Shown one piece after another: positions 12,627 to 61,123 of a DNA stretch of 64,000 nucleotides. Every line of letters starts with the position of its first letter. Position 1 is the stretch's first letter. The translations under genes and the position numbers were made by a program. The notes below the pieces were generated by a model that saw only the letters and a list, made by a program, of their open reading frames with translations, ran no database searches and was not told the origin of the DNA. Source of the stretch: an uncultured Pseudomonadota bacterium (lineage in GTDB: Bacteria > Pseudomonadota > Alphaproteobacteria > Rs-D84); the NCBI GenBank assembly GCA_949290785.1, contig CASETE010000011.1, positions 5,893 through 69,892 on the forward strand, written 5' to 3'.

Positions 12627-13525
12627 TTATATTCGTCTTGTGTATCAAATTTTAATACAACCACACGTGATAATTGTTTTGGTGGTAATACACTTACATC
12701 TGTTTCGTTTTGCATTTCACCGACGGGTATTCCGTTTGGCAAGACGCCGCTTATATTACTTGTAACCAATTTAATGCCGCCAGAAGGTTGGAATTCGGGG
12801 TCGCTAAAAAATCCCATTGTTGGTGTGCTGGAACCGTTGCCTTGCATAAAACCATAAACTTCCGAGCCAACAACGCGAACCGGAATATTTGTGTTTGAAT
12901 CTGTCAAAGCGCGTACGCGTGAAAAATGCGGCGCAACATCAGTTATAATACCGACCAACACGCCATCAGTAGATGTTACAACCATACCTTTTTCTAAACC
13001 TTGCTTAATACCTTTGTTAATAAGGAAAGTACTATGATGAAAGGCGGAATCATCGTATATAACATCTGCAATCAAAGAATCACGTGGGTTAGATTCAATA
13101 ATATCTAGCTCGCGCGCAAGTTTTTGATTTTCTAATACGGCGATTTCACATGCGGTTTTGTTTTTAAGCGCCTCGTCCAATCTTACGCGCAGTTCTTCGT
13201 TTTCCGTTCGCAAAGTTGATAATTCTCTGATGTTATCAACCGCGTTACCAACGGCGCGAACCGGCCAAGTTATTATGTTACCGGTCCAATGTGCCACGGG
13301 CAGAATTATATGTGCCAAACCATTCATTATTTTATAATCGGGTTTAGCAATCATTATATATATAAATAGTACGGGCAAAATTGCTGCTGCAACGGCAGAT
13401 TTAATGATAGTATATAATCTTGAAGATAATTTATTTTGGCTCATATTAATGGGTAGTGTAAACTCTAAAAGAGCAACATTCAATAAAAACTTGATTTTTC
13501 TTTTTATTATGCCAGAATAACGCAT
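12623..13525 (-). CDS. mreC: Rod shape-determining protein MreC (true start may be the internal MSQNKL.. about 27 codons in)
   Basis: N-terminal TM, coiled-coil (RTENEELRVRLDEALKN), C-terminal beta domain; operon position. Confidence 0.75.
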   Translation of the reverse strand: MRYSGIIKRKIKFLLNVALLEFTLPINMSQNKLSSRLYTIIKSAVAAAILPVLFIYIMIAKPDYKIMNGLAHIILPVAHWTGNIITWPVRAVGNAVDNIRELSTLRTENEELRVRLDEALKNKTACEIAVLENQKLARELDIIESNPRDSLIADVIYDDSAFHHSTFLINKGIKQGLEKGMVVTSTDGVLVGIITDVAPHFSRVRALTDSNTNIPVRVVGSEVYGFMQGNGSSTPTMGFFSDPEFQPSGGIKLVTSNISGVLPNGIPVGEMQNETDVSVLPPKQLSRVVVLKFDTQDEYK

Positions 13526-13586
13526 GTGTTAAACAAAGCCGAAATGGCAATGGCATTGCCATAAGGTATTAAGAAAGAGGTAAAAA

Positions 13587-13790
13587 ATGCCAAAATTAAA
13601 AACAAAGTCGTACTTAAAAAAGCGCGCATCTATGACAGCGACCGGTAAAATTCGCGTTGCCAGAAATGCCCACAAGAAACTGTTACGTCATAAATCCAAG
13701 CGTGCAAATAACGCTGGGTCAAAGCCACAGTATCTGAATGAAAACATGGTCGGTCAGGCAAAAATCTTGGCCCCATATGGATTGAAATAA
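13587..13790 (+). CDS. rpmI: 50S ribosomal protein bL35
   Basis: MPKLKTKSYLKKRASMTATGKIRVARNAHKKLL..; 67 aa. Confidence 0.9.
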   Translation: MPKLKTKSYLKKRASMTATGKIRVARNAHKKLLRHKSKRANNAGSKPQYLNENMVGQAKILAPYGLK

Positions 13791-13803
13791 AAGGGGGTAG
13801 ATT

Positions 13804-14172
13804 ATGGCAAGAGTTAAACGCGGAACAACCGTAAAACAAAAACATAACAAGATTTTGGCCCGTGCCAAAGGGTATCTGGGTCGTCACAGTACAACGTATC
13901 GTGCTGCGCGTGAAAAAACCGAAAAGGCGGGACAATATGCATATCGCGATCGTCGCGTTAAAAAACGTGAATTTCGTGGTTTGTGGATTGTTCGTATAAA
14001 CGCTGCCGTGCGTAGCAATGGTATGACATACAGTCAGTTCATGAATGGTTTAAAGAAAGCAGGCGTTACATTAGACCGCAAGGTCTTGGCAGAAATGGCG
14101 TATGCCGGTGACGCTAATTTCACAAAACTGATTGATACTGCAAAACGATTTATCTCTGCCGATGCTAAATAA
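13804..14172 (+). CDS. rplT: 50S ribosomal protein bL20
   Basis: [24 protein letters not shown]..; 122 aa. Confidence 0.9.
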
Positions 14173-14185
14173 GCCTTGGCGGCAG

Positions 14186-14232
14186 GTGTTTTATTTTGTA
14201 TGATAAAGCCGTCTATTGACGGCTTTTTATGT
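14186..14232 (+). promoter_or_regulatory. Candidate pheST attenuator: mini-ORF GTG-TTT-TAT-TTT-GTA-TGA (fMFYFV) whose stop abuts an intrinsic terminator (AAAGCCGTC-TATTG-ACGGCTTT + T5) 15 nt before the pheS ATG
   Basis: Hairpin plus T run lies between rplT and pheS, the position of the E. coli pheM leader/attenuator. The ORF-track start at 14176 would place this terminator inside coding sequence, so the pheS start is taken as 14248 (SD AAGGTGG). Confidence 0.35.
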
Positions 14233-14247
14233 TTTAAGGTGGAATCC

Positions 14248-15195
14248 ATGCAAGAACAAATAAAAAACATTAAAACTTTGGAAGATTTACAGGCATTGTA
14301 CGTTGCTACCTTCGGTAAAAACGGGACGATGACGGCGCGATTGAAAGAAATGAAAAATTTGGATAACGACGCGCGCGCGGAACTTAATAAAGAGAATTCA
14401 ACTTTGCGCGAATTATTCAAAGTTCGTCAATCTGAACTGGAACAGCAGGCATTGATGGCAGGCCTACAAAAACAAAAGTTAGACGTATCGTTGAACCCTG
14501 AACCCGAAAATGTAGGAACGTTGCATCCGATAACTCATGCTTTGGCTGACATATCTTCAATACTTGAATCGTTCGGTTACGAATTATGGACCGGGCCAGA
14601 GGTAGAAGATGATTGGCATAACTTTACGGCTTTGAATACTCCTATGCATCACCCTGCTCGCGACATGCAAGATACCTTCTTTTTACCGAATGGAAACGTT
14701 ATGCGCACGCAGACATCTGCAATTCAGATTCGCAGCATGGAAAAGAAAGGGGCGCCGATAAAGATGTTTGGTATAGGTGCAACATATCGTAAAGAAATGG
14801 ACGCAACGCATGGTCCTATGTTTCATCAGATAGAAGGCTTGTATATTGATAAAGATGTGACGATGACTGATTTAATCGGTGATGTACAAGAATTTTTGAA
14901 AAGATTTTTTGAAATGGACAATGTTGAATTACGTATTCGTCCGTCTTACTTTCCTTTTACCGAACCAAGCATAGAAGTAGATATGAAATGGCGTGGTGAT
15001 AAATGGTTAGAACTAATGGGGGCCGGTATGGTACATCCTGATGTTTTACGTAACTGCGGCATAAATCCAGAAGAATATCAAGGGTTTGCGTTTGGTTTTG
15101 GCTGGGACAGACTTGCAATGTTAAAGTATGGACTAAACGATTTAAGAAAACTTTACGACGGTGATATTCGTTGGTTAAAAAACGCCGGATTTTAA
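14248..15195 (+). CDS. pheS: Phenylalanine--tRNA ligase alpha subunit
   Basis: Class II aaRS motifs (FRIRPSYFPFTEPSIEVD, GAGMVHP); start at MQEQIKN after SD. Confidence 0.9.
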   Translation: MQEQIKNIKTLEDLQALYVATFGKNGTMTARLKEMKNLDNDARAELNKENSTLRELFKVRQSELEQQALMAGLQKQKLDVSLNPEPENVGTLHPITHALADISSILESFGYELWTGPEVEDDWHNFTALNTPMHHPARDMQDTFFLPNGNVMRTQTSAIQIRSMEKKGAPIKMFGIGATYRKEMDATHGPMFHQIEGLYIDKDVTMTDLIGDVQEFLKRFFEMDNVELRIRPSYFPFTEPSIEVDMKWRGDKWLELMGAGMVHPDVLRNCGINPEEYQGFAFGFGWDRLAMLKYGLNDLRKLYDGDIRWLKNAGF

Positions 15196-15214
15196 ATTAA
15201 GAACGAGGCATAAG

Positions 15215-17518
15215 ATGAAATGGACTTATGATTGGCTAAAAGATTACTTAAAAACAGATGCTGATGCGTCTTTGATTGCGGACACACTGACGCGTACCGG
15301 GTTGGAGGTTGAAGATTTAATAGAACCTATTTCACCAGTTGCGGCTAAAATAATTGAATGCGTACCGCATGAAAATAGTGACCATTTACACGTATTAAAA
15401 GTTGATGATGGCAGCGGAAAACTGCGTCAGGTTGTATGCGGTGCACCAAACGCGCGCGTTGGATTGATATCTGCGCTGGCGAAACCCGGCTGCGTAATAG
15501 AAGGTCATGAAATACAAAGCGGTAAATTACGTGGTGTTCTGTCCGACGGCATGATGTGCAGCGGTCGCGAGTTAGGTATAAACGACGACCACAGCGGTAT
15601 TATTGAGTTGCCTGAAAATACAGTAATAGGTTCACAAATATTTCCCTCAGAAACTGTTTTTGATGCGGGGATTACGCCAAACCGACCCGATTATTTGGCA
15701 GTACGCGGAATCGCACGCGATTTAGCGGCATGTGGAATCGGTGAATATATTATACCAAAAGACGACGTTTTGGCGCCTGTAACGGGTCAAAGAAAAATAA
15801 AAATAGAAACAGATAAGTGTCCTGTATATCAGTTCTGTGAAATACACGATATAAAAATCGGGCCAAGTTCCAGCAAGATAAAATCTCGTCTTGCAGCAAT
15901 TGGTATAAATCCTAAAAATGCCCCGATAGATGCAACGAATTATATTTGTTATGATATGGCACAGCCTATGCATTGTTTTGATGCTGATGAAATAGTTGGT
16001 GACATAACTGTTCGCAGCGCTAAGACAGGCGAAAAATTTACAGATTTATTCGGTAACGAGCATGATTTATCTGATACAGACGTGGTTATCGCGGATGATA
16101 AAGGAATTCTTGCGTTGGCGGGTGTTGTTGGCGGTGCGCGTGGCATGACGACAGATAATACGAAAAATATTATTTTAGAAAGCGCATATTTTAATCCTGT
16201 ATCTGTTCGCAAGACTTCTAAGCGTATCGGCATATCAACAGATTCTTCATACAGATATGAGCGCGGTATAGACCCAACTATTACGGGCATTGCGTTGGCA
16301 AAAGCAGCAAAAATAATAATGGAAGCCTGTGGTGGAAAAATAGTTGGTACGGGAATTGGTGGGGAAATACCAAAAGAAACGCGTGCTATACGATACAGTC
16401 CGGATTTGTTCAAGAAAAAAATAGGCGTTGATATGGAAAGTTCTCGTCAGCGCGAGATTCTTGAAGGGCTTGGGTTTAAAATAACAGAAACAAAAACCGC
16501 GTGGACAATTGTGCCTAGGTCGGCGCGCGTTGATATTGTTTTACCTGAAAATATTATATCCGAATTAATCAGAATATATGGTTATGACAATATATCAAAG
16601 GTTGCAAAACACAAAATAGCAAGCGCCGTGCCACATAAAGATTCTTATATGTGGTTAAAAAAGGAATTGGCTGCGCGTGGTTTGAACGAGGTTAAGTCAT
16701 ATAGCTTCGGTAATTCAAAAATAGAAGAATTATTGTCAGATAAAACCATCATAAACATTGCGAATCCTATTATAAATACTATGGATACAGCAAGAAACGG
16801 TTTATTGGGCACGTTATTAAGTTTTGTATCGGAAAATGAAAAGCGCGGATTCCCAGATTTAAATATGTTTGAATTGGGAACGGTTTTTGACGGTGATATG
16901 CCGGGTCAGCAACATACACAGATATGTATCGTTCGTACGGGCAACACATCGCCTAAACATTGGCAACATAGAAATCGGGTTCGTGACATATATGATGTAA
17001 AGGCGGATTTAATTGCATTGATGCACGGACAGAATTTCACGGTCAGCACTGACAATGCACCGCTGTGGGCACATCCATTCAGATACGGTGCAATTATGCA
17101 AGGTAAGAAAAAGATATCAGAATTTGGCGAATTACATCCATCTGTTGCACGTAACTTGAAAATAAAAACACCTGTTATGATAGCGATTGTGGAAGATGTA
17201 GAAAATTTACCAAAAGCAAAGAAATCGAAAGAACCTGTAATAAGTGAATTTCAGCCTATTACGCGTGATTTTGCATTTATTGTAGATTCTGAATTTCCTG
17301 CGGAAAAACTAACAAGTGTTGCGGTATCAAGTGATAACAGAATACAGAATGTGATAGTATTTGATGCATTTGATATGGGTGACGGCAAGAAGTCAATAGC
17401 ATTTACAATAACAATAATACCGACAGAAAATATGTCAGATGAAGATTTGCTAAAACTTCAAGATAAAGTCATAGAAAATGTCGAAAAGAAATGTAATGCA
17501 AAGATAAGAGATAAATAA
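15215..17518 (+). CDS. pheT: Phenylalanine--tRNA ligase beta subunit
   Basis: 767 aa; tRNA-binding (EMAP-like) N-terminal domain, B3/B4 and FDX-ACB regions. Confidence 0.9.
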   Translation: MKWTYDWLKDYLKTDADASLIADTLTRTGLEVEDLIEPISPVAAKIIECVPHENSDHLHVLKVDDGSGKLRQVVCGAPNARVGLISALAKPGCVIEGHEIQSGKLRGVLSDGMMCSGRELGINDDHSGIIELPENTVIGSQIFPSETVFDAGITPNRPDYLAVRGIARDLAACGIGEYIIPKDDVLAPVTGQRKIKIETDKCPVYQFCEIHDIKIGPSSSKIKSRLAAIGINPKNAPIDATNYICYDMAQPMHCFDADEIVGDITVRSAKTGEKFTDLFGNEHDLSDTDVVIADDKGILALAGVVGGARGMTTDNTKNIILESAYFNPVSVRKTSKRIGISTDSSYRYERGIDPTITGIALAKAAKIIMEACGGKIVGTGIGGEIPKETRAIRYSPDLFKKKIGVDMESSRQREILEGLGFKITETKTAWTIVPRSARVDIVLPENIISELIRIYGYDNISKVAKHKIASAVPHKDSYMWLKKELAARGLNEVKSYSFGNSKIEELLSDKTIINIANPIINTMDTARNGLLGTLLSFVSENEKRGFPDLNMFELGTVFDGDMPGQQHTQICIVRTGNTSPKHWQHRNRVRDIYDVKADLIALMHGQNFTVSTDNAPLWAHPFRYGAIMQGKKKISEFGELHPSVARNLKIKTPVMIAIVEDVENLPKAKKSKEPVISEFQPITRDFAFIVDSEFPAEKLTSVAVSSDNRIQNVIVFDAFDMGDGKKSIAFTITIIPTENMSDEDLLKLQDKVIENVEKKCNAKIRDK

Positions 17519-57088: not shown

Positions 57089-57389
57089 TATGGATATGGA
57101 AGCTTTATTGGCCCAAGCAAATGCTCTGCAGAGCAAAGTTAACGATGCACAAGAAAAGTTAGATAAAATGCACGTAAAAGGAATTTCCGGAAAAGGTGCC
57201 TGCATTATTGACATGACTGGTAAGTATGATTTAGTTGATGTAAAAATCAGCGAAGATGCTTTGGCTTATGGTGCAGACAAAGTTGCAGAGCTGGTATCGT
57301 TGGCTTATCGTGATGCCAAGGCAAAGGCAGACGAGTTAATAGACAAGGTTATGGGGGAAGCGACAGCGGGCGTTCCAATGCCAGAATAA
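57089..57389 (+). CDS. ybaB: Nucleoid-associated protein YbaB/EbfC
   Basis: MDMEALLAQANALQSKVNDAQEKL..V.GISGKGACIIDMTGKYDLVDVKISEDAL..D.E.L.DLV; SD AGGAGAG; ~100 aa. Confidence 0.8.
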
Positions 57390-57426
57390 AAAACTGGACA
57401 AGTGGGAAAAAATGGTTTATTATAAT

Positions 57427-57503
57427 CGCGCTGTTTCGGATGTTTAGCTCAGTTGATTAGAGCATCTCGTTTACACCGAGAGGGTCGGGGGTTTGAGTCC
57501 CTC
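57427..57503 (+). tRNA. tRNA-Val (anticodon UAC)
   Basis: GGATGTTTAGCTCAGTTGATTAGAGCATCTCGTTTACACCGAGAGGGTCGGGGGTTTGAGTCCCTCAACATCCACCA; encoded CCA. Confidence 0.85.
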
Positions 57504-57748
57504 AACATCCACCAAAAAATACAATCGCCGAATGGCGATTTTATTTTTTGCATGGGGATGTGGGACGAAAACCCCCGAAGTAAGGGGTTTGAACCGCAGA
57601 CGAGAGGCAGACGGCAGTATGCCGGTTCATGCGCAGCATGAACGAGTCAAGGTCGGCGAAGCCAATCCCTCAACATCCACCAAAAAATACAATCGCCGAA
57701 TGGCGATTTTATTTTTTGCATGGGGATGTGGGACGAAAACCCCCGAAT
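57487..57748 (+). repeat. Direct repeat (two ~95 bp copies 168 bp apart) comprising the last 17 nt of tRNA-Val(UAC) (TCCCTCAACATCCACCA), an intrinsic terminator (AATCGCC-GAAT-GGCGATT-T6) and a second hairpin (AAACCCCC-GAAGTAA-GGGGGTTT); separated by a 72 bp GC-rich segment
   Basis: Copies at 57487-57582 and 57655-57748 differ by a single indel. The second copy is preceded by GGTCGG, echoing the tRNA variable/T-stem region. Confidence 0.7.
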
Positions 57749-57892
57749 AAGGGGTTTGACAATGACTAGGCGAGATAAGCGTCAAGCATAATCGAGCCGT
57801 CAGGAATGCCCCGCAGCCGGCGTGACAACGCCGTGCGAGGGAACCGCACCGCATAAATACGCCCAAACGGGCGATTTTTATAAATATGATTT

Positions 57893-59545
57893 TTAACGGT
57901 TACGCGGTTTTCCTCTGTGTAAAAATTTAATAAGGTTTATTTTTTCAGTAATTTCAAATAGTTTTTTATAATAATTTTTCCGGTCTAACCCATTAATTAT
58001 GTTTTGTGAATTTTCCTGCGCATTCTGCTGTTTTGCATTTACTGCGGTATTCATCATAGTTTTTTTTGATATTTTGGTATTATTTTCTAAAAAGTTTTCA
58101 CCATAACTTTGTAAATTTGGCGCATAAAATTTATATAAAATTTTATTCTTGTACATAAAATTATTTTTTATATTTTGTAAACGCGGCGCATACAAAACAT
58201 CAAGGCTTTCGTTATAAAACAAAGCGTCGTTACCGAATGATTCAATTTTGTCTACGCGTAAATATTTAAGGCATTTGTTACAATACAAGAACGCATCGTC
58301 TGCAGATTGCAATTCGTTTAATTCCAATTGTTTTACCTTTTTATTACTTGCCATAAAGTTATATCCGACTTTTTGCAGTTTATCCGCTTTAAATTCGTAA
58401 ATATTTTTATTATGAGATACAAAATTGTTACCGACATGTTTTAAGTTGGCTAGGTGTAATTTTGTTAACCCGAGATTTTTATATAAAAAGTTATCGTCTA
58501 CGGATTCCAGGTTGTCCGCGTTGAAAGAAGACAAGTTAATATTATTTTGTAAAAATAGCGGACCAATTTCTTTTGTATTCGGCAGATTTAAAGCGATAAC
58601 GATTCCTTTTTGTGTTGTTATAACGGGCACGTCGTTCGCAAATAAAGTGACGGTATCGTCAGATTCATTGCGTTGCATACGTAGGGCTTTATCTTTTATT
58701 TCTTTGTTTATGACATTGATAAAACTGTCTTTGAAAACAAGATTATATGGTATATTAAATTTTTTGCATGCAATATTCTCAATATCTGAAAACTGTTTAG
58801 TTGTTATATCAAAAAGGAAATAATCTGCAATAAATTGTGTTTCTTTGTTTATGTCTTGTATTTGATTGTTGTAGACCCAAAAGTCAGGTCCTGAAAGTAT
58901 GCCGTAAAGATTATAATTAAATTTGACGATTTGACCGTTTACTGTTTTAAATCGCTCTGATGGTAATAAATTAGCATTATTACGCATCGGTATATTAAAA
59001 TATTTATGCAGGGAAGCCAACAGCCCCGGAATGATATTATCTGCAAACTTAATGGTATTACCATAACGATTATTAATATAAATATAGTTATTTGACTTGT
59101 CTATTTGTATAGATAATACAGATAGTCCATATTTGTCATATGGTTGCGGGGTTATAAAGTCTGCACGATTTAGTCTTTCTGCTTTGTCGTTTACTGCGTT
59201 AATAATATGATAGTCTTTATATTTATCGTTTTTTTTGAAAATGCCAAGTTCTTCTGATTTTGTAAAGTATTTTTGTATATAATTTTGTGTTTCTGGAGAA
59301 TCGGCATAAACTGCTTTGTATCCTGCTGATTGTAATAATTCAAAAGGCGACTTTTTTGCCAATTGTTCATCTATGCAAGATTTTTTTATGCTTTCTAAAT
59401 ATAGTAATATTGGTTTTGCGTCGTGTCCGGCATATTTTACTATTTTATCTAAATTTGGGATATTAAAAATACCGTTATCATAATCTTGAATGGAATCGAC
59501 AAACTCTTTGCCGTTTTGTTTTTTTATTATACTAAACATAGACAT
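57893..59545 (-). CDS. BspA-type leucine-rich-repeat protein (7 x ~22 aa repeats L..IG.NFL..N..L.......) with ~330 aa N-terminal domain of unknown function; no signal peptide; basic C-terminal tail
   Basis: Repeats ANLKHVGNNFVSHNKNIYEFKA / DKLQKVGYNFMASNKKVKQLEL / DKIESFGNDALFYNESLDVLYA / PRLQNIKNNFMYKNKILYKFYA etc. C-terminus ..KFLHRGKPRNR. Confidence 0.55.
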   Translation of the reverse strand: MSMFSIIKKQNGKEFVDSIQDYDNGIFNIPNLDKIVKYAGHDAKPILLYLESIKKSCIDEQLAKKSPFELLQSAGYKAVYADSPETQNYIQKYFTKSEELGIFKKNDKYKDYHIINAVNDKAERLNRADFITPQPYDKYGLSVLSIQIDKSNNYIYINNRYGNTIKFADNIIPGLLASLHKYFNIPMRNNANLLPSERFKTVNGQIVKFNYNLYGILSGPDFWVYNNQIQDINKETQFIADYFLFDITTKQFSDIENIACKKFNIPYNLVFKDSFINVINKEIKDKALRMQRNESDDTVTLFANDVPVITTQKGIVIALNLPNTKEIGPLFLQNNINLSSFNADNLESVDDNFLYKNLGLTKLHLANLKHVGNNFVSHNKNIYEFKADKLQKVGYNFMASNKKVKQLELNELQSADDAFLYCNKCLKYLRVDKIESFGNDALFYNESLDVLYAPRLQNIKNNFMYKNKILYKFYAPNLQSYGENFLENNTKISKKTMMNTAVNAKQQNAQENSQNIINGLDRKNYYKKLFEITEKINLIKFLHRGKPRNR

Positions 59546-59765
59546 TTTTTACCTCGCTATAAAAATAAACGAAAATTAAAAAATGTCAATTCATTATAGG
59601 AATTTTTGCATTTTAATAATTCAGAAATTTTTTATGTATATTCCGGGGTACAGTTAAATAGTTTTTTATATAGTATTGCAACAACCGCATGTTTATAATA
59701 AATCTGGAAAAAGAGGGCAGAATAAAGGCACAGAATAAAGCAAAACCCGCAAATGCGGGTTTTTA

Positions 59766-60020
59766 TTATTTTTGCTTTTGTTGCCAGCATATGGCGGCAT
59801 TTATATATTGTTTTGCACGATTTATATCAAATGTTTTTGTCCCTGGTGTTTTTAATTTCCCTTCTGCATCTATCCATATATCTGTGCGATTACCCGCAAC
59901 TTTTGCAATTTTATCAAGGTTTTGTATCACGTTTTCTGATGATATGCGTAATAAATCTATTGCTTTATTTACAGGTATATCTTCCCTGATGTCTGAACAG
60001 GTTATATAGCGTAATTGCAT
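59766..60020 (-). CDS. Hypothetical small protein (84 aa) downstream of rlmN, likely co-transcribed
   Basis: ATG 3 nt after the rlmN stop; followed by bidirectional terminator AAACCCGCAAATGCGGGTTT at ~59741-59765; no recognised domain. Confidence 0.3.
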   Translation of the reverse strand: MQLRYITCSDIREDIPVNKAIDLLRISSENVIQNLDKIAKVAGNRTDIWIDAEGKLKTPGTKTFDINRAKQYINAAICWQQKQK

Positions 60021-60022
60021 GT

Positions 60023-61123
60023 TTATTTCTTTTTGTTGTTCAGACGCAATTGCCCACAAGCACTCCCTATATCCTGCCCGCGTTCGCGTCTTATTCTGGT
60101 GTGTATTCCGTTTTTGATAAGAATGTCTTGAAATCTATGAACTGCATTTCCAGAAGGTGCGGCGAAATCACGTTCATCAACCGCATTCCATGGTATTAAG
60201 TTTACCATACAGTTTTTGCCTTTTAGTAAGGCGGATAATTTTTCTGCATATTCTGGTGTGCAGTTAAATAACTCTGTTTCGCCTTTATCGTTCTTTTTGC
60301 CAAGTAATATGTATTCTATCATCAGTTGACGGTTGTGCAGGTCTGAAAATTCAAAAGCGGCGTCCAAAACTTCAGACAATTTGTATTTGTTATTAATTGG
60401 CATAATCTGACTGCGTAATTCGTCTGTTGGCGCATGCAGGGATATTGCAAGGTTTATCGGTCTGCCCCAAGCAGTTAAATCTTTAATTCCTGGTACAATT
60501 CCGCAAGTAGAAACTGTAATTTTTCGCCAACTGATACCCATATCTTTATTTGCGCGTTCTATAAATCCGATAACGTTTTCTGTATTTTGTAATGGCTCAC
60601 CAGTTCCCATAACAACTATATGAGAAACATCATCGTTATTAGCGTCGCCGTTCGGATGTATATGTTTGTCAGAAAATTTGTCTGAGCGCAGTTCCCATTG
60701 CGCGACCAGAATCTGAGAGAAAATTTCGTTTACGGTCAAATTTCTTTTCAAACCTAACAAGGTACTTGCGCAGAACCTGCAGCCCATTGCGCATCCCGCC
60801 TGAGAACTGACGCAGACACTGTTGCCGTAACTTGTTCGCATCAGGACGCATTCTATTTGCTCACAGTCACTCAGTTCCAGCAAGAATTTAGTTGTTTGAT
60901 TATCAGAAGACTCCAATTTTTTTACGATTTTTACCGGCAGCGTCTGAGCTGATTCGTCTAAATCATGACGCAATTTTTCGGGCAAGTTTTTCATAGACCC
61001 AAAGTCTGGTGCGCCGCGTAATAGCCATTCACGAATTTGCTTCGCGCGAAACTTGGGCTGACCTAACTTTTGAATGAAATCCGTTAATTCCGCATCTGAA
61101 AAATTAAATAATATCGGCTTCAT
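60023..61123 (-). CDS. rlmN: Dual-specificity RNA methyltransferase RlmN (radical SAM)
   Basis: Radical SAM CxxxCxxC in VSSQAGCAMGCRFCAS plus downstream conserved Cys; 366 aa. Confidence 0.9.
   Translation of the reverse strand: MKPILFNFSDAELTDFIQKLGQPKFRAKQIREWLLRGAPDFGSMKNLPEKLRHDLDESAQTLPVKIVKKLESSDNQTTKFLLELSDCEQIECVLMRTSYGNSVCVSSQAGCAMGCRFCASTLLGLKRNLTVNEIFSQILVAQWELRSDKFSDKHIHPNGDANNDDVSHIVVMGTGEPLQNTENVIGFIERANKDMGISWRKITVSTCGIVPGIKDLTAWGRPINLAISLHAPTDELRSQIMPINNKYKLSEVLDAAFEFSDLHNRQLMIEYILLGKKNDKGETELFNCTPEYAEKLSALLKGKNCMVNLIPWNAVDERDFAAPSGNAVHRFQDILIKNGIHTRIRRERGQDIGSACGQLRLNNKKK

Follow-up and report, generated by a model that had tools for sequence, protein, structure and literature searches.

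In the 64-kb stretch of DNA that we analysed (the window), the gene for tRNA-Val(UAC) is followed by a tandem pair of RtT-like, tRNA-framed structured elements, and the locus is a recombination hot spot. The DNA belongs to Candidatus Enterousia, an alphaproteobacterium of the gut whose genome is smaller than 1 Mb; its GTDB order, Rs-D84, is a gut lineage whose genomes are mostly below 1 Mb (PMC12306168). We term these sequences E elements. It is likely that the two in the window, E1 and E2', which lie in tandem, belong to a family of small, structured, non-coding elements that has not been filed before and that shares the frame of the RtT RNA of Escherichia coli. Their function and their mechanism of mobility are matters that we infer.

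E elements are about 110-155 nt long (one is 240 nt) and lie directly behind tRNA genes in Candidatus Enterousia. A full element has four parts. First, a 5' stub is antisense to the 3' strands of the tRNA's acceptor stem and T-stem. Second, there is a hairpin (P1) whose 3' strand repeats the T-stem 5' strand and the first 5 T-loop nucleotides. Third comes a variable GC-rich core with two to four hairpins and conserved single-stranded motifs. Finally, the tRNA is copied from the end of the T-loop to the CCA (the last 17-20 nt), and then its trailer and terminator recur. The elements begin about 40 nt past the tRNA, just beyond the terminator, with ...GG(G)ACGAAAACCCC..., and most of them finish with ...TCCC..CATCCACCA, which is the tRNA's own 3' end, followed by a terminator.

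The tRNA-Val(UAC) gene of the window (57438-57514, + strand; found by ARAGORN, 66 bits with the Rfam tRNA model) encodes its CCA. Its acceptor stem is GGATGTT/AACATCC and its T-arm is GGGGG-TTTGAGT-CCCTC, and the sequence is identical in about 35 Enterousia loci. E1 (57554-57682, + strand) begins 40 nt after this gene, on the same strand, and is complete. Its stub GGATGTGGGAC (57556-57566) is antisense to the acceptor 3' strand and to the GTCCC of the T-loop/T-stem. P1 (57568-57590) pairs AAAACCCCC with GGGGTTT, and its 3' strand GGGGTTTGA (the copy of the T-arm 5' half, 57584-57592) repeats the T-stem 5' strand and five bases of the T-loop. The core, U1 (57593-57665), therefore takes the place of T-loop positions 58-60, and it is followed by TCCCTCAACATCCACCA, the copy of the tRNA 3' end (57666-57682). 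E2' (57722-57856, + strand) has a stub and P1 like those of E1 and a core, U2, at 57760-57848. Its closing helix, formed by ATGTGG (57726-57731) with CCGCAT (57849-57854), replaces the copy of the tRNA 3' end. By core sequence, at least two families are found behind tRNA-Val(UAC): family A (GTTTGAACCGCAG..AGGCGG..CGCCGGT.., alignment A2), which includes E1, and family B (GTTTGACAATGAGT..GCCCCGCAG-hairpin-TGCGAGGGA, alignments A1 and A3), of which E2' is a variant. A covariance model (R1) that was seeded with eight family-B members, leaving out the elements of the window, finds both E1 (50 bits, E = 1e-11) and E2' (68.8 bits, E = 2.8e-17).

A preliminary description of this DNA had noted that the 3' end of the tRNA and its terminator occur twice, 168 bp apart. 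BLAST of this region against the window reproduces this: 57498-57592 matches 57666-57759 on the + strand (95 columns with 1 indel, 98.9% identity, E = 2.5e-45, spacing 168 nt), with no further copy elsewhere in the 64 kb. When the degenerate left extension at 57483-57497 is included, a repeat search gives 107 nt at 90%. The repeat (family D1) opens with the last 17 nt of the tRNA; copy 1 then has the trailer and terminator T1 and the stub and P1 of E1. Copy 2, which is to say the "95-nt duplication", is the tRNA-like 3' end of E1, the repeated terminator T2, and the conserved stub and P1 of E2'. T1 with its trailer (57515-57553, + strand) has an A-tract, a hairpin (57523-57540), and a T-tract, and it scores as an intrinsic terminator on both strands; T2 (57683-57721, + strand) is identical to it. 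The repeated hairpin and T-tract, AATCGCC-GAAT-GGCGATT plus T's, occupy 57523-57553 and 57691-57721. A third terminator, T3 (57860-57881, + strand; CGCCC-AAAC-GGGCG plus a T-tract), resembles the tRNA terminator of a conspecific locus (L010). As DNA, the run from tRNA 3' end through terminator to stub is a palindrome with 45-nt arms that are 78% complementary. An independent assembly from another study (L042) carries the same array of repeat, E1, repeat, and E2', with a 96-nt perfect repeat, so the repeat in the window is not an assembly artefact.

Other details of the preliminary description also bear on the elements. The hairpins that it quoted from the unique segments are present, GTTCATGC-GCA-GCATGAAC at 57625-57643 and CGGCG-TGACAA-CGCCG at 57818-57833, and the resemblance to the tRNA that it saw in the GGTCGG before copy 2 extends over 57651-57665, which is colinear with the variable-loop/T-stem region. 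Its "GC-rich islands" (57583-57654 and 57749-57865) do have 58% GC, as compared to 38.9% for the window and 29.7% for the neighbouring gene, but that they lie far above the background needs tempering: about 50 other 60-nt stretches of the window, mostly coding sequence, reach at least 58%.

Relatives came from a pnp-based scan of species-representative genomes that yielded 80 loci (L010-L089); where an organism is given for a locus, it is mostly Candidatus Enterousia or uncultured Alphaproteobacteria/Rickettsiales. In the 1.63 Mb of Enterousia loci that we scanned for element copies, strong matches to R1 or by BLAST occur only directly downstream of tRNA genes, and all of the 20 or more related elements follow a tRNA. 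We also made a blind test, searching the 600 nt downstream of each tRNA for another copy of its last 14 nt. This was positive for tRNA-Val(UAC) (10 of 47 genes), tRNA-Val(GAC) (2 of 10), and tRNA-Cys(GCA) (3 of 11), and it was negative for all 6 tRNA-Thr(CGU) genes and for 10 of 10 tRNAs from unrelated loci.

The frame fits the neighbouring tRNA at all three of these genes. Behind tRNA-Val(UAC), the stub is GGATGT in the window, where the acceptor is GGATGTT/AACATCC; it is GGTGTT in the metagenome contig L207, where the acceptor is GGGTGTT/AACACCC, and GGCGTT in the metagenome contig L237, where the acceptor is GGGCGTT/AACGCCC. Behind tRNA-Val(GAC), in L078 and L067, the R1 model finds elements with the stub GGGTGGT-GGAC and a P1 of GAACCAAC/GTTGGTTCGA, which fits the T-arm of that tRNA (GTTGG-TTCGAGT-CCAAT). 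Their 3' end, CCAATACCACCCACCA, and the copy of the Val(GAC) terminator that comes next fit that tRNA as well. In the three elements that the blind test found behind tRNA-Cys(GCA), both P1 (TCGAACCG/CGGTTCG) and the 3' end match tRNA-Cys. We had considered a valine-specific function, which we dropped because these tRNA-Cys elements exist.

This design recalls the tyrT locus of E. coli, where every 178-bp repeat includes the final 19 bp of tRNA-Tyr. The tyrT repeats and the RtT RNA have been recognised since about 1980, and we know of no convincing account of their origin or function. On inspection of the K-12 sequence, each unit has a stub GGGGAAGGAT, which is antisense of ATCCTTCCCC, then AAGGTTCGA, which joins the T-stem 5' strand of tRNA-Tyr to five bases of its T-loop; a GC-rich core and then AATCCTTCCCCCACCACCA complete the unit. 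The Rfam model for RtT (RF00391) scores the K-12 units at 133-137 bits, against a gathering threshold of 45 bits, and in its consensus the K-12 stub helix closes the unit, with the CCA tail left single-stranded. RtT RNAs are reported to be freed from the transcripts of tRNA operons and to show on Northern blots; they are also reported near other tRNAs in Pasteurellaceae, and they are non-essential (PMC4986893). They have been loosely linked to the stringent response (PMC4986893; bioRxiv 10.1101/2024.07.17.603846).

E elements and RtT units are alike in five respects. Both lie directly behind a tRNA on the same strand, apparently within its transcription unit, and can be in tandem. Both end with the last 17-19 nt of the tRNA, including the CCA (57666-57682 of E1 equals 57498-57514 of the tRNA; E2' fails here). 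In both, a 5' stub that is antisense to the T-stem-3'/acceptor region is predicted, from folds and duplexes, to close the unit with the CCA unpaired. In both, the T-stem 5' strand and 5 T-loop nucleotides (AAGGTTCGA in E. coli, GGGGTTTGA in the window) precede a GC-rich core of several hairpins. Finally, both systems have several different tRNAs as hosts. There are also differences. E elements repeat an intrinsic terminator with each unit, whereas in E. coli there is a 51-nt spacer without a terminator. The E element stub also mimics the acceptor 5' strand (6-7 bp), which gives a longer tRNA-like helix. Several core families have been exchanged at one site in Enterousia. Also, the hosts are Alphaproteobacteria (Rs-D84, PMC12306168) rather than Gammaproteobacteria. 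On these comparisons we regard E elements as RtT-like in architecture and not as members of RF00391. The preliminary description had counted it against its own reading if the GC-rich segments should prove to be a known structured RNA of core function. This applies in part: they do resemble the RtT units of E. coli, but RtT is not a core RNA.

RtT itself is polymorphic within E. coli, as the units of K-12 are missing from strain SK1144 (L264, NZ_AP018784.2, 2698163-2698365), where 33 nt separate tyrT from tyrV and an RtT unit is found neither in that gap nor behind the pair. In SK1144, desaturase genes lie 17 nt downstream of tyrT/tyrV.

The predicted structure of E elements, by both minimum-free-energy and centroid folds, is a helix of stub and 3' end that closes the element and leaves ACCA free, with P1 and two to four more hairpins inside. 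The closed element would thus be a cloverleaf-like multi-helix junction that ends in single-stranded ACCA. The predicted fold of E1 has −47.5 kcal/mol (z = −3.4 on the + strand and −2.65 on the − strand), and that of E2' has −52.9 kcal/mol (z = −4.0 on the + strand, with none of 200 shuffles as good, and −2.1 on the − strand). The z-scores are thus stronger on the + strand, which is the strand of the tRNA, for both elements, and U-G wobble pairs favour the tRNA strand too. Compensatory changes are seen in several helices (for example, GCGTTTT/AAAACGC vs. GCATTTT/AAAATGC, TGCAA/TTGCA vs. CAAAA/TTTTG, and CCC/GGG vs. CGC/GCG). In alignment A3, tested with a structure that we specified ourselves, 86.9% of cells are paired, as compared to 83.2% in shuffled alignments (reached by 0 of 500); the covariation score is reached by 1 of 500 shuffles, and slid controls are only 30-54% paired. 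We consider these covariation statistics modest.

Elements are closed in three ways: by the tRNA-like helix, by TTCGGGA/TCCCGAA (L029 and L036), and by the ATGTGG/CCGCAT of E2' in the window. The last two are not derived from a tRNA. The existence of three distinct helices for this purpose suggests that selection acts on closing the element and not on the DNA palindrome of tRNA, terminator, and stub. Among known RNAs, hairpins with a 3' CCA that are substrates of RNase P include the 4.5S RNA precursor, the C4 RNA of phages P1 and P7, and the tmRNA (transfer-messenger RNA) precursor. The closing helix of E elements is predicted to resemble these, with about 10-11 bp and then an unpaired ACCA, stacked like an acceptor/T-arm minihelix. 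However, unlike such substrates and tRNA-like structures, E elements have no T-loop or D-loop.

Comparison of relatives at the tRNA-Val locus, which the preliminary description had suggested as a check, found both empty and filled sites, and the locus is hypervariable. At tRNA-Cys, an empty locus (L076) and a filled one (L072) are 100% identical through the tRNA, and the 185-nt insert in L072 comprises the element and a further copy, 60 nt long, of the tRNA 3' end ATTCCGACCCAGGCCTCCA and terminator. Further pairs are L045 (empty) vs. L048, and L032 (empty) vs. L025 and L035. On its left side the direct repeat invariably begins 17-20 nt short of the tRNA 3' end. This point is the T-loop/T-stem junction, where tRNA-targeting integrases frequently cross over. 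Larger DNA also lands at this site: L046 has a 3.45-kb insert (12648-16103) at the same tRNA-Val, with genes for a tetratricopeptide repeat protein and a 463-aa lipoprotein and a truncated ATPase-like open reading frame (ORF), and the insert ends at ATCCACCA and a copy of the terminator.

The preliminary description had interpreted copy 2 as resembling an attR site and had proposed either a decayed island or a slippage duplication. Copy 2 is indeed the right boundary of an insertion at the tRNA 3' end, but it is not the mark of a decayed island: what was inserted is a whole, conserved unit of about 130 nt with a structure of its own, and it is present twice in the window. Slippage is excluded, as the segment between the copies is foreign and is 99-100% identical in species whose pnp genes are only 79% identical.

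Elements also appear to be exchanged between genomes. E1 is 100% identical in L048 and 99.2% identical in L042, and E2' is 97% identical in L042, between genomes with 79% nucleotide identity in pnp; family B elements are 86-96% identical between genomes with 82-85% pnp identity. The window and the conspecific L010 are 100% identical up to 57513 and unrelated directly after. Two short-read metagenome contigs (L001 and L002) break at the tRNA end, the same position at which L010 diverges. Element types are independent of terminator types and of host lineages. Terminator copies are alike within a genome and different between genomes (window vs. L042; L067 vs. L078), which points to concerted evolution. 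Such shuffling is most simply explained by recombination for which the invariant tRNA, stub, and 3' end serve as anchors.

We propose that E elements would be transcribed with, or just after, the tRNA and that the tRNA-maturation machinery would process the E RNA in the way described for RtT: RNase P would cleave on the 5' side of the acceptor-like helix, and the 3' end would be shortened to the CCA. Insertion would duplicate a target that stretches from the T-loop through the whole terminator. Homologous recombination would then shuffle elements between strains and species, with the invariant tRNA, stub, and 3'-end sequences as anchors, and unequal crossing-over between repeats could give tandem arrays.

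Several observations speak against this account of the elements as expressed, RtT-like RNAs. First, what looks like a good intrinsic terminator separates each element from the tRNA, and a sequence scan found no convincing promoter before the elements. Second, E2' lacks the tRNA 3' copy, and in L035, L238, and the tRNA-Cys elements of L049 and L058 the closing helix either has no acceptor-like part or has it in degenerate form. The complementarity of stub and 3' end could equally reflect the DNA palindrome and not an RNA helix. Third, covariation was judged from no more than 8-9 related sequences in each family. Just 4 pairs have changes in both partners, a number that is also attained in 79 of 500 shuffles. 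Fourth, homology with RtT is not demonstrated: RF00391 matches neither the window (at the gathering threshold, or at E <= 10 on 57300-58000) nor the tRNA-Cys element of L072 (at E <= 10), and the core sequences of RtT and E elements are unrelated by BLAST. Finally, we identified no enzyme that could move E elements.

A first alternative, which we think unlikely, is classical site-specific integration. The elements would then be integrase-less miniatures of a tRNA-targeting element, much like cis-mobilizable elements (CIMEs), and would be moved by a tyrosine recombinase acting in trans; the GC-rich core would be attP-arm DNA and the tRNA 3' copy the attL/attR core. E elements do resemble tRNA-targeting integrative elements and CIMEs in that the insert is at the tRNA 3' end, with direct repeats of that end flanking it and a left edge at the T-loop/T-stem junction; also, empty and filled sites both occur among relatives, and element types spread horizontally, independently of host lineage. 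The gene-carrying 3.45-kb insert of L046, which is bounded by a repeat of ATCCACCA plus terminator at the same tRNA, fits this explanation too. However, the E insert is gene-free and only about 125-240 nt, and the duplicate takes in the whole host-specific terminator, 42-96 nt in most filled sites, which is much longer than the core of an integrase site. An attP arm has no need for covarying hairpins, conserved loops, or a stub that is antisense to the tRNA and tracks its acceptor. There is also no sign of the enzyme in this interval: the statement of the preliminary description that no integrase is present holds for the window between tRNA-Val and rlmN, and reading the ORF translations of the same interval gave none in L015, L024, L036, L039, L046, L048, or L057. 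Nor does a phage, plasmid, or integrative and conjugative element origin of the GC-rich segments, which had been suggested as something to check by BLAST, find support. The elements have no blastn match in phage and plasmid collections, and three pattern scans of viral contigs gave only chance matches of seed length. In the literature, we found no relevant description of a miniature element that targets the T-loop.

A second possibility, less likely still, is that the frame has meaning at the DNA level only and that the elements are non-functional by-products of hairpin-primed fold-back or template switching at the terminator palindrome, possibly mediated by RNA. The order of sense 3' half, terminator, antisense, sense, and terminator is what two successive fold-backs would produce. 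The duplicated target, from the T-loop to the end of the terminator's T-tract, is the 3' end of the primary tRNA transcript, and frames have been made from the local tRNA at three different genes. Yet this explanation does not say where the conserved cores came from, why they are always at T-loop positions 58-60, or why their helices covary. The antisense stub is built alike next to two different tRNAs (a 3-nt skip, then GG(G)AC), as selection would make it, and no reverse transcriptase was seen nearby.

Third, it is hardly credible that the array arose when the 3' flank of the tRNA slipped or was duplicated in tandem on the spot, or by misassembly of two strain haplotypes. It is true that two near-identical 95-nt copies lie 168 nt apart and that short-read metagenome contigs break at the tRNA end. 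But the 72 nt between the copies duplicate nothing local; they recur, with the same junctions, in L042 and L048, where identity is 99-100%. The array is also found in L042, which was assembled independently, and the contig breaks are explained by strain polymorphism from position 57514.

Returning to the RtT-like reading, a broader and speculative version of it is that RtT-like units may be a widespread class of tRNA-parasitic, non-autonomous elements in Alpha- and Gammaproteobacteria, with the tRNA machinery used for their expression. Such units might insert at the T-loop/3' end and might build a tRNA-matched frame (antisense stub, split T-arm, and duplicated 3' end with trailer) from the target. 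The route might be fold-back, template switching, or RNA-mediated, and it would be new to bacteria. We give this version no more than a small chance.

The RtT frame behind three tRNA genes in a distant lineage with reduced genomes turns what was a curiosity of E. coli into a comparative problem. The material for it includes clean empty and filled sites, frames that follow the tRNA, several cores that can be exchanged, and copies that are almost the same although their host species have diverged by about 20%. Two predictions can be tested, namely processing at the acceptor-like helix and T-loop insertion with duplication of the trailer. The family is also an unannotated structured RNA that annotators of gut metagenomes should be aware of, and E elements explain why assemblies of these genomes break at tRNA-Val(UAC).

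We tried several other identities for the elements and rejected them. Rfam, at the gathering thresholds and at E <= 10, gave only tRNAs and noise. ARAGORN and the Rfam models for tRNA and tmRNA found four true tRNAs in the window and none in the elements of seven related loci. A tmRNA, including the two-piece alpha forms, is thus not supported by ARAGORN or Rfam, and the GGGG...CCACCA ends that might suggest one are explained by the tRNA-derived frame. The 95-nt palindrome is not an integron attC site, as inspection showed neither RYYYAAC/GTTRRRY cores nor an IntI. The stub is not a retroviral type of primer-binding site, as its pairing to the tRNA 3' end breaks right after the CCA. CGAAAC does not indicate a hammerhead ribozyme, as there is no CUGAUGA box. 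Finally, repetitive extragenic palindromes and their mosaics (REP/BIME), Rickettsia palindromic elements (RPE), and miniature inverted-repeat transposable elements (MITE) do not fit: there are no scattered copies in the 64-kb window, and in the 1.63 Mb of loci copies occur only behind tRNA genes.

The gene order of the window is truB, rpsO, pnp, and ybaB, then tRNA-Val(UAC), then an ORF of 550 aa on the − strand, and then rlmN, a SurA-like gene, and lptD. Wherever tRNA-Val(UAC) follows ybaB, the order pnp-ybaB-tRNA-Val-variable stretch-rlmN is maintained. The variable stretch, from tRNA-Val to rlmN, ranges from 0.85 to 5.5 kb across loci and usually contains a gene for an OmpA-like lipoprotein. 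The window lacks that gene and has the 550-aa ORF in its place (57893-59545, − strand; from the ORF list). This gene has 29.7% GC and, by eye, a repeat pattern of about 23 aa. It is present in 3 of about 40 loci: the window, L010 (83% amino-acid identity), and L014 (39%). The preliminary description called it a leucine-rich repeat (LRR) gene, an identity that we could not confirm, since the protein has no Pfam LRR match even at E <= 10 and no support for an LRR identity from PDB sequences. It lies beyond the third terminator without a flanking repeat; it is a separately variable neighbour and not part of the element.

Two other ORFs of the window deserve mention. A 97-aa ORF at 59766-60059 on the − strand (..MQLRYITCSDIRED..) resembles the N-terminus of a 247-aa ORF in L015 (MDLRYITCSGPDES..) and is probably a gene remnant; DNA similar to 59742-59942 is also found in L012, L013, L016, L020, and L021. 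An 85-aa ORF with a TTG start spans both repeat copies (57493-57750, + strand) and is most likely spurious, since its frame would run through the end of the tRNA and through terminators. For comparison, an RtT unit of E. coli overlaps the tiny tpr ORF.

Other small inserts occur at the tRNA-Val loci. L010 has a conserved structured element of about 230 nt (12885-13120; GAATCCACAGGGATGTGG...CGGTGCG..GCATCG twice...) upstream of a glycosyltransferase gene in the same variable interval. It is also found in L018, L049, L052, L058, L039, L024, L046, and L064, and not in the window. Its 3' part has a sub-threshold Rfam match to sRNA-Xcc1 (RF02221; 44.1 bits vs. a cut-off of 53 bits, E = 1.3e-6), a family that was first described in integron cassettes. 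A small non-coding insert that we term Module D (TTCGTTAACGAACGCAGTGAG...GCCACACGAAGCCTTGTGCGAAGTGTGGCTTTTTT) is at 12663-12740 in L045 and comes after E elements in L048, L058, L024, and L039. It lies 6 nt past the tRNA CCA, between CAAAAT and the native terminator, and its terminal hairpin occurs twice in L041. Module F (TCTATTCCCCTCCACCGGAGGGGTGTTTTTATGC..GCATAAAAACGGGGAGGG) is at 12652-12720 in L032 and comes after E elements in L025, L035, and L224; its CCCCTCC has two mutually exclusive pairings, and it looks like a terminator/antiterminator switch. Downstream of tRNA-Val in L023, L026, L032, L041, and L224 are inverted repeats, GTCATTCC(T/C)GCGCAGGC(A/G)GGAATAGGG, which resemble the ATTCCCNNNNNNNNGGGAAT repeats known from Neisseria, and L031, L034, and L238 have a low-complexity tract of CTATTATCTATTCTCTATTATC.

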